DNA from: Escherichia phage Pu-Krd-SF1
Strand: one strand, 5' to 3'
DNA: 64,000 nt
Sequence record: PQ249395
Below the pieces are notes generated by a model, which saw nothing but the letters and a program-made list of their open reading frames with translations, was not told the DNA's origin and ran no database searches. This document shows, piece after piece, positions 55,811 to 57,036 of the stretch (its first letter is position 1; every line of letters begins with the position of its first letter). Both the position numbers and the translations under genes were made by a program.

Positions 55811-56839
55811 ATGTCATCAATACCTTGGATTGATAATGAGTTTGCATACCGTGCATTAGCTCATTTACCTAAATTCACACAAGTAAATAATAGTTCAACT
55901 TTTAAATTGCGGTTTAGATGTCCTGTTTGTGGAGATTCAAAAACCGACCAAAATAAAGCCCGTGGATGGTATTATGGTGATAATAATGAAGGAAATATTC
56001 ATTGTTATAACTGTAACTATCATGCACCAATCGGAATATATTTAAAGGAGTTTGAACCCGATTTATATCGTGAGTATATCTTTGAAATAAGAAAAGAAAA
56101 AGGTAAAAGTCGTCCAGTAGAAAAACCTAAAGAACTTCCTAAACAACCTGAGAAGAAAATAATTAAATCTCTTCCATCATGTATTAGATTAGATAAACTG
56201 GCGGAAGACCATCCAATTATAAAATACGTAAAAGCTCGTTGTATTCCAAAGGACAAATGGAAATATCTTTGGTTTACAACCGAATGGCCTAAATTAGTTA
56301 ATAGCATAGCACCGGGAACATATAAAAAGGAAATACCTGAGCCTCGTCTTGTTATTCCAATTTATAATGCTAATGGAAAAGCTGAGTCTTTTCAAGGACG
56401 TGCATTAAAGAAAGATGCTCCTCAAAAATATATCACCATCAAAGCTTATCCTGAGGCAACAAAAATCTATGGTGTTGAACGAGTTAAAGATGGTGATGTA
56501 TATGTTCTAGAAGGACCTATAGATTCACTTTTTATTGAAAATGGTATAGCTATTACAGGTGGTCAATTAGACCTAGAAATTGTTCCATTTAAAGATAGAC
56601 GTGTGTGGGTTTTAGATAATGAACCTCGTCATCCTGACACTATTAAACGAATGACTAAATTAGTTGATGCAGGAGAAAGGGTTATGTTTTGGGACAAATC
56701 TCCATGGAAATCAAAAGATGTTAATGATATGATTAGAAAGGAAGGTGCAACCCCTGAACAAATTATGGAATATATGAAAAATAATATTGCTCAAGGGTTG
56801 ATGGCTAAAATGCGTCTATCTAAATATGCTAAGATTTAA
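55811..56839 (+). CDS. 61: DNA primase gp61
   Basis: Zinc ribbon CPVCGDS...CYNC, TOPRIM VLEGPIDSLF; 342 aa. Confidence 0.9.
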   Translation: MSSIPWIDNEFAYRALAHLPKFTQVNNSSTFKLRFRCPVCGDSKTDQNKARGWYYGDNNEGNIHCYNCNYHAPIGIYLKEFEPDLYREYIFEIRKEKGKSRPVEKPKELPKQPEKKIIKSLPSCIRLDKLAEDHPIIKYVKARCIPKDKWKYLWFTTEWPKLVNSIAPGTYKKEIPEPRLVIPIYNANGKAESFQGRALKKDAPQKYITIKAYPEATKIYGVERVKDGDVYVLEGPIDSLFIENGIAITGGQLDLEIVPFKDRRVWVLDNEPRHPDTIKRMTKLVDAGERVMFWDKSPWKSKDVNDMIRKEGATPEQIMEYMKNNIAQGLMAKMRLSKYAKI

Positions 56840-57036
56840 ATTAACCCAACTAAAGCAAATGCTAAATCTACGAATGTATCAAGAGTAATTACTGGAATAC
56901 TAACGCCATGAGCAAGAGCAACTGGCGATAAAACAAAATTCCAAAGTAAAATTCCTATCATAGCAGAAATAGTAAAAGCTATACGTTTTTTATTACCTTT
57001 TATGGCATTAACAAGTGCCATTAATTTTTGTACCAT
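56836..57036 (-). CDS. small hydrophobic membrane protein (66 aa), antisense to neighbours
   Basis: Minus-strand ORF with strong SD AAGGAGGAtatATG; convergent with 61. Confidence 0.6.
   Translation of the reverse strand: MVQKLMALVNAIKGNKKRIAFTISAMIGILLWNFVLSPVALAHGVSIPVITLDTFVDLAFALVGLI

Follow-up and report, generated by a model that had tools for sequence, protein, structure and literature searches.

dam.1, a small opposite-strand gene at the 61/56 junction of T4-like phages: a conserved coding sequence with a candidate late promoter and a predicted membrane product

Several genes and control elements described in phage T4 and its relatives provide points of comparison for a small gene at the junction of genes 61 and 56. 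The closest of them is the gene annotated as dam.1 in phage T4T (ADJ39749.1, HM137666.1 17724..17924); the slot adjacent to this ORF is occupied in T4, T2 and ACG-C40 by dam, which encodes the GATC N6-adenine methyltransferase Dam. MotA-dependent middle promoters follow the consensus (a/t)(a/t)TGCTT(t/c)A, located ~12 bp upstream of a −10 TATAAT. RI antiholin, Imm and Ac are short T4 inner-membrane proteins with one or two hydrophobic segments, which act on the envelope and are non-essential in the laboratory, while phage 21 S68 and T7 gp17.5 serve for comparison among the small holins and pinholins. T4 late promoters are defined by TATAAATA at −13 to −6, the T at −13 being poorly conserved in relatives of T4 (PMC1524935), and among 50 T4 late sites 32 are perfect, with A at −13, in nine sites, as the commonest variant (PMC2988020).

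The window analysed here, a 64,000-nt stretch of Escherichia phage Pu-Krd-SF1 (PQ249395), corresponds by coordinate arithmetic to the reverse complement of positions 9427..73426 of PQ759885.1, the genome of Escherichia phage Pu-Krd-SF5, a T4-like Tequatrovirus from piglet faeces, with 100% identity over 2.7 kb around the small ORF. In agreement with the PQ759885.1 coordinates, the ORF has positions 6965..7165 in the reverse-complemented window as well as in locus L022. The gene order is 41, dmd, 61.4, sp, 61.2, 61.1, 61, the small ORF on the opposite strand, 56, a homing endonuclease gene and soc, and the genes and translation signals at the junction are the following.

55811..56839, plus strand: gene 61, DNA primase of 342 aa (weak Pfam DNAG_N match, T4 gene 61 synteny), convergent with the small ORF
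56836..56839, both strands: TTAA palindrome holding the stops of gene 61 (plus) and of the small ORF (minus)
56836..57036, minus strand: CDS of 66 aa with an ATG start, orthologue of dam.1 (PHROG 2024), XPN51818.1 'hypothetical protein' in PQ759885.1
57002..57031, plus strand: hairpin with a T-run, resembling a terminator of gene 61 transcripts, within codons 6-12 of the small ORF
57040..57047, minus strand: Shine-Dalgarno sequence AAGGAGGA, followed by TAT and then by the ATG at 57036..57034
57108..57626, plus strand: gene 56, dCTPase of 172 aa (Pfam dUTPase_2, 6e-7), divergent neighbour of the small ORF

The original prediction had proposed a minus-strand ORF for a hydrophobic protein of 66 aa, with a stop overlapping that of gene 61, as the only ORF on its strand with a strong ribosome-binding site, and these points held. 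The protein has a GRAVY of 1.28, one TTAA contains both the TAA of gene 61 (56837-56839) and the stop of the ORF (complement of 56836-56838), and no other minus-strand ORF of 30 aa or more in the window has a Shine-Dalgarno match of 6 nt or longer. The ribosome-binding site itself is present as predicted, though its distance to the start codon had been put at about 5 nt and is in fact 3 nt counted from the octamer, or 4 nt from GGAGG. To call the gene antisense was loose wording, given that it overlaps gene 61 by just 4 nt and is better described as an opposite-strand gene convergent on it. The same 4-nt overlap occurs in T4, Melville, Entb_45, P545 and Bas37, and AAGGAGG, AGGAGG or GGAGG is retained upstream of the dam.1 ATG in all 11 lineages compared. 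Among 89 annotated features in 50 kb of PQ759885.1, the small ORF is the sole CDS on the opposite strand. As a separate observation, dam.1 is the only clockwise gene within a counter-clockwise early block of ~64 kb.

By sequence comparison, the small ORF is an already catalogued and ordinary hypothetical gene, T4T dam.1 or PHROG 2024. Its residues 2-66 matched positions 1-65 of the 65-position profile of phrog_2024, a family of unknown function, with an E-value of 2e-30, and an intact orthologue with 91% amino acid identity is found in T4 itself (NC_000866 17738..17938, plus strand), within the 309-bp gap between dam and 61. No feature is annotated at this place in AF158101.6, NC_000866.4 and several further T4 records, while newer T4, T2 and RB records label it as hypothetical protein; in a collection of 15 billion proteins, the exact T4 protein sequence appeared in raw assemblies only, without an NCBI accession. 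A literature search found no paper on a dam.1 transcript, protein or membrane localisation.

The family extends well beyond close relatives of T4. Searches with tblastn detected the protein in 691 phage records, with at least 80% coverage in 684 of them, and a profile HMM search of 1.84 billion representatives gave nine matches, all from the family itself or noise, which marks the family as very narrow. Two of the nine are distant members (P0041 and P0039); the gene for the first lies between 56 and 61, on the opposite strand, in a T4-like contig from a metagenome, and tblastn with both sequences extended the family to T4-like phages of Klebsiella, Salmonella, Citrobacter, Enterobacter and Edwardsiella. 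The slot is likewise filled by distant members, with 20-31% identity, in Jiaodavirus (KPV15), Gelderlandvirus (Melville), Kanagawavirus (Entb_45 and PEi20), Marfavirus (P545) and metagenomic T4-like contigs. The gene lies on the opposite strand, convergent with the primase gene and on its gene 56 side, in T4, T2, fPS-2, ACG-C40, KPV15, Melville, Entb_45, PEi20, P545 and a metagenomic contig (L013), and in every genus sampled it is found in this slot, convergent with gene 61.

The pattern of substitution is that of a coding sequence. Values of dN/dS (Nei-Gojobori) ranged from 0.12 to 0.35 for the informative pairs and were about 0.15-0.3 overall, the ORF stays open between lineages with saturated synonymous sites (pS 0.6-0.8), and variable sites are distributed 44/18/56 over the three codon positions. 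In a single record, that of T4_ev240, a 1-nt deletion in an A6 run at codons 16-17 shifts the frame. It could be argued that the ORF is open by chance and owes its conservation to the overlapping gene 61 terminator hairpin and to the promoter of gene 56 and oriA, as the hairpin falls inside codons 6-12, the middle promoter abuts the start of the ORF and the T4 reference annotation never included it. We consider this exceedingly improbable: the hairpin accounts for 30 of 198 nt, whereas the codon-position pattern and dN/dS are typical of coding sequence and a similar length together with the W-N-P-A-G-P-[DE] signature is retained down to 20% identity; an Rfam scan of the locus returned chance eukaryotic matches only, with no match to an RNA family. 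The hairpin was rejected as the cause of ORF conservation, since it is absent outside Tequatrovirus; the fPS-2 record has a terminator annotation at this position. Judged by these patterns, the small ORF truly encodes a protein, and T4-like phages of Enterobacterales have conserved it at the 61/56 junction.

The location of dam between 56 and 61 in T4, given in the original prediction, is confirmed by the T4 record. The absence of a methyltransferase ORF here also held, for the window and for the whole 168.8-kb genome of PQ759885.1. No methyltransferase is annotated anywhere in the latter, and the full-genome search proposed to detect a dam gene at another location gave, with T4 Dam and tblastn, a best E-value of 1.0. 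The motif [DNS]PP[YFW] matched five times, in ORF segments of 88-145 aa, none of them coincident with the Dam tblastn match, and the single such segment in the window, the one covered by the Pfam scan, had no Pfam match. Alignment of T4 with the window resolved the difference into a cassette of 878 bp, comprising dam and 99 bp of upstream region, which in T4 lies exactly between the ribosome-binding site of the ORF (tcctcctt on the plus strand) and the MotA box ATTGCTT of gene 56.

57047..57048, no strand: junction lacking the T4 878-bp cassette, from side-by-side comparison with T4 (cassette, L001 2848..3725)

That the small ORF is an oddity linked to the loss of dam, as had been implied, was not borne out, as the same ORF adjoins dam in T4, T4T and T2. 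T4-type Dam (at least 90% identity) was found in ~182 records versus ~501 with a close copy of the small ORF, only about one third of Tequatrovirus records carry T4-type dam, and T4 dam has been classed as non-essential in transposon data, with 80 of 82 TA sites hit (bioRxiv 10.1101/2025.11.20.689424). Other contents of the slot include a homing endonuclease in fPS-2 and an extra ORF next to dam in T2 and ACG-C40, and the slot is empty in Kha5h, PhiZZ23 and three of five Tequatrovirus metagenomic contigs. Given the record counts and the dispensability of T4 dam, dam is an accessory cassette whose absence is a common polymorphism with no special meaning. The small ORF, unrelated to the Dam protein that this genome lacks, is independent of the neighbouring cassette and not a replacement for it.

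The upstream region of the small ORF carries a middle promoter and, on the opposite strand, a candidate late promoter.

57048..57073, plus strand: MotA-type middle promoter of gene 56, formed by ATTGCTTTA, 11 nt and TATAAT, homologue of T4 P(M)16.53
57053, minus strand: predicted late transcription start, obtained by taking 57059 as −6, with a 17-nt leader
57059..57066, minus strand: late (gp55-type) promoter-like box AATAAATA at −13 to −6, 22 nt before the ATG

The promoter of gene 56 has the MotA box, the 11-nt spacer and the TATAAT expected of a MotA-type middle promoter. A mot-box and −10 are annotated at the homologous place, as P(M)16.53, in the T4 record X01416, a 'predicted middle promoter' is annotated there in fPS-2, and the P(M)16.53 transcript is linked to the priming of oriA in the T4 and T4T records. 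The late-type box of the small ORF sits on the other strand in the spacer of this promoter. A box close to the late consensus had been predicted upstream on the minus strand, and it was indeed located at 57066..57059; a box of the TATAAATA type shortly upstream of a ribosome-binding site is what characterizes T4 late genes. The box and its distance to the ATG in the lineages compared are as follows.

AATAAATA: window, 22 nt; L011, 21 nt
GATAAATA: T4, 21 nt; T2, 19 nt; L013, 14 nt
CATAAATA: VR26, 16 nt; L017, 15 nt; KPV15, 12 nt
TATAAATA (perfect): Entb_45, 15 nt; P545, 19 nt
ATTAAATA only: Melville

Thus 10 of the 11 lineages carry NATAAATA upstream of the ATG, at a distance of 12-22 nt, the other upstream sequence being unalignable. 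The gene of the window shares with dam.1 of T4 and T4T its length, strand, stop overlap with gene 61, ribosome-binding site and late-type box, and the two arrangements differ in what lies beyond: in T4 and T4T the dam cassette separates the ORF from gene 56 and the box is provided from inside the cassette, the spacer of the T4 middle promoter having none, whereas in the window the gene 56 middle promoter directly adjoins the ORF. In the phages lacking dam, the window among them, the box lies in the spacer of that promoter. Hence dam.1 keeps a late-type box irrespective of the DNA lying upstream. The ATAAATA core is two-fold depleted in the window (21 observed versus 42.7 expected), with nine copies on the minus strand, and the perfect TATAAATA boxes, nine in total including one before soc, are all on the plus strand, with none on the minus strand. 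The recurrence of the box at a similar place in independent lineages, together with the depletion of its core, leads us to infer a late promoter with a start near 57053, and the presence of NATAAATA in nearly all lineages likewise points to a gp55-type element. In the Tequatrovirus, Mosigvirus-like and VR26 lineages no box begins with T, so this promoter may be weak.

A late transcript starting there could have its main function as RNA, running antisense into the 3′ end of gene 61 so as to damp primase expression or collide with early and middle transcription, with the peptide as a secondary product. [quoted passage not shown] Purifying selection on the amino acids and a strong Shine-Dalgarno sequence in every lineage would nevertheless be left unexplained, and in two lineages a gap and a hairpin separate the two genes, so we regard a primarily RNA-based function as very unlikely. 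An antisense effect on gene 61 could arise as a by-product of dam.1 transcription.

Our preferred reading is that of a protein-coding, probably late gene, and the properties of its product point to the membrane. The 18 N-terminal residues carry a net charge of +5, the best 19-residue Kyte-Doolittle window scores 1.98, and a transmembrane helix is predicted at residues 16-42. An AlphaFold2 model built with the family alignment (mean pLDDT 84) contains helices at 2-12, 16-42 and 52-65, with the predicted loop HGVSIPVIT between the last two. The 18 C-terminal residues, VITLDTFVDLAFALVGLI, have a mean hydropathy of 2.07 and no basic residue; the C-terminal helix of distant members is far less hydrophobic (0.76-0.81), and it may therefore be interfacial and not membrane-spanning. 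In an alignment of 12 lineages reaching down to 20% identity, W32, P38, G44 and P48 are invariant, N33 and A40 are present in at least 90%, position 53 is acidic across the family and a basic cluster precedes the hydrophobic helix. The protein of the window has the full signature W-N-x4-P-x-A-x3-G-x3-P-x4-[DE] after its basic juxtamembrane cluster. In the predicted topology the N-terminus is cytoplasmic and a single helix spans the membrane; the conserved residues would then fall within the outer half of this helix and within the periplasmic loop.

Small size, hydrophobicity and a late-type promoter are also features of holins, and the idea that the ORF encodes a holin, pinholin or other direct lysis effector deserves attention. 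With phage 21 S68 and T7 gp17.5 the product shares a length of 60-70 aa, hydrophobic helices and, as far as the promoter allows us to infer, late expression; the polar residues N33, D53 and D57 lie within or near hydrophobic helices, the OE5505 member is named 'Holin' in UniProt and that of KP1079 'putative holin' in its record, and two distant members gave a sub-threshold match (E 0.014) to the holin-like YwcE. These labels are isolated, however, with no experimental basis found, and no Pfam holin family was matched by any of 12 family members. Nothing beyond the family itself came out of Pfam, NCBIfam and PADLOC scans of the protein and these 12 sequences, of a PDB sequence-profile search, or of Foldseek against PDB and BFVD. 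Of the features that define holin families, the window protein thus has the transmembrane helix, but neither the charged C-terminal domain, its C-terminus being hydrophobic, nor a family or fold match, and its third helix has just 14 residues. A dual-start motif of the holin type (M1...K4...M6) was also considered and rejected, as it is not conserved outside Tequatrovirus. The genomic setting differs from that of small holins as well, in that no lysis gene or cassette adjoins dam.1, while the genome already has its own T-type holin, RI and RIII antiholins and spanins elsewhere.

Dispensability bears on the same question. In the HIDEN-SEQ study of the Tequatrovirus Bas37, bas37_0144, a plus-strand gene of 201 nt with a 4-nt overlap with the primase gene and by position the orthologue of dam.1, was classed as 'Non-essential', with 20 of 24 TA sites hit; for K-12 versus CFT073 there was no effect, with a log2FC of +0.33 (q = 1), and a second comparison gave +0.20 (bioRxiv 10.1101/2025.11.20.689424). 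A sole holin would, on the contrary, be required for plaques, and taking all these data together we consider it unlikely that dam.1 encodes a direct lysis effector. The non-essential envelope-acting proteins RI, Imm and Ac show no sequence similarity to dam.1, as tblastn and HMM searches find its own family only, and Imm differs further in being the product of an early gene on the other strand.

The expression and fate of a late membrane protein could then be envisaged as follows. After the onset of replication, RNA polymerase with gp55, gp33 and gp45 would initiate at the AATAAATA box and produce a transcript whose 17-nt leader bears a near-perfect Shine-Dalgarno sequence, from which the 66-aa protein would be translated. 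The product is predicted to be inserted in the inner membrane, where its basic N-terminus would stay in the cytoplasm, with one transmembrane helix at about 16-42 and a short acidic C-terminal helix lying on the periplasmic side or folded back. We assign a probability of roughly 80% to these three steps taken jointly, that is, to a real gene with a late-type promoter that encodes a small membrane protein. The dam.1 product is thus probably a small inner-membrane protein with a single membrane pass, expressed late and dispensable in the laboratory. A further step, suggested by the conserved residues and in our view doubtful, would be docking onto another membrane protein through W32, N33, P38, A40, G44, P48 and the acidic residue at position 53; our guess is that, by such helix-helix docking, dam.1 might act as an accessory modulator of late envelope events, for instance of lysis timing. 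Against this, the T4 rapid-lysis gene search of Burch and colleagues in 2011, said to be 'perhaps saturating', reportedly yielded no gene at the position of dam.1.

As dam.1 is missing from the T4 reference annotation, it is also missing from the T4 screens built on that annotation, and the omission from AF158101.6 and NC_000866.4 means that annotation-based T4 studies skip the gene. The T4 gene table of HIDEN-SEQ has no row for this ORF (bioRxiv 10.1101/2025.11.20.689424), and CRISPRi-ART targets 'all annotated CDSs' only. It is conceivable, if rather improbable, that dam.1 is an unrecognised near-universal late membrane factor of T-even-type phages with a specific role in the envelope. Were this true, that role might consist in tuning holin T, lysis inhibition or spanin function, or alternatively a host membrane protein might be targeted through the conserved W-N...P...G...P surface. 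At the level of the locus, the 61/56 junction appears as a plastic slot, which can be occupied by dam, by a homing endonuclease or by an extra ORF or be left empty, beside a gene that stays. The practical value of the finding is small but real: standard T4 annotations omit a conserved gene of enterobacterial Tevenvirinae that is under purifying selection and apparently equipped with its own promoter.

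The late-type box of the small ORF and the gene 56 middle promoter are arranged back-to-back in the window, overlapping each other on opposite strands. In T4 a distance of 878 bp separates these two elements. The features of this region considered here are the following:

57048-57073, plus strand: gene 56 middle promoter of the MotA type, homologous to P(M)16.53, from which the oriA primer is made in T4
57059-57066, minus strand: late-type box (gp55-type, late-promoter-like) of the small ORF
57002-57031, plus strand: terminator-like hairpin ATGGCATTAACAAGTGCCAT followed by TAATTTTTGT, a putative terminator for gene 61 transcripts
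57601-58452, plus strand: 283-aa ORF overlapping the end of gene 56

The terminator-like hairpin of gene 61 is contained within codons 6-12 of the small ORF, and the middle promoter of gene 56 lies shortly past it. The hairpin is shared by T4 and T2 and missing from the other genera sampled, and a terminator has been annotated at this site in the record of phage fPS-2. At the junction of the small gene with primase gene 61 itself, Tequatrovirus genomes leave no space for such a structure, unlike the distant T4-like metagenomic contig L013, in which a short GC-rich hairpin (AGGGGGTTACACCCCT, positions 5205-5225) separates the two genes and might function as a bidirectional terminator.

The T4 copy of the small ORF (3739-3939 of the T4 locus L001, corresponding to 17738..17938 on the plus strand of NC_000866.4) bears the name dam.1 in T4T. 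This conserved ORF carries no annotation in AF158101.6, NC_000866.4 and several further T4 records, and it has therefore gone unscored in annotation-based T4 screens. A frameshifted copy appears in a single record, that of T4_ev240 (LR597657.1; about 1990-2000 of locus L025), where one base is deleted from an A6 run at codons 16-17; the deletion may be genuine or may reflect a sequencing error in the homopolymer.

Regarding the 283-aa ORF, its equivalent site in T4 is occupied by the GIY-YIG endonuclease gene segF. Sequence records name the product a homing or HNH endonuclease, and searches of Pfam and NCBIfam returned no match for it.

A 1-kb stretch of the minus strand (49917-50935), antisense to the beta-glucosyltransferase gene, contains four ATAAATA cores. 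Throughout the whole window, this late-promoter core is two-fold depleted (21 observed versus 42.7 expected), while perfect TATAAATA boxes are confined to the plus strand (nine out of nine, none on the minus strand). Both the depletion and the one-sided distribution fit with selection against stray late promoters.
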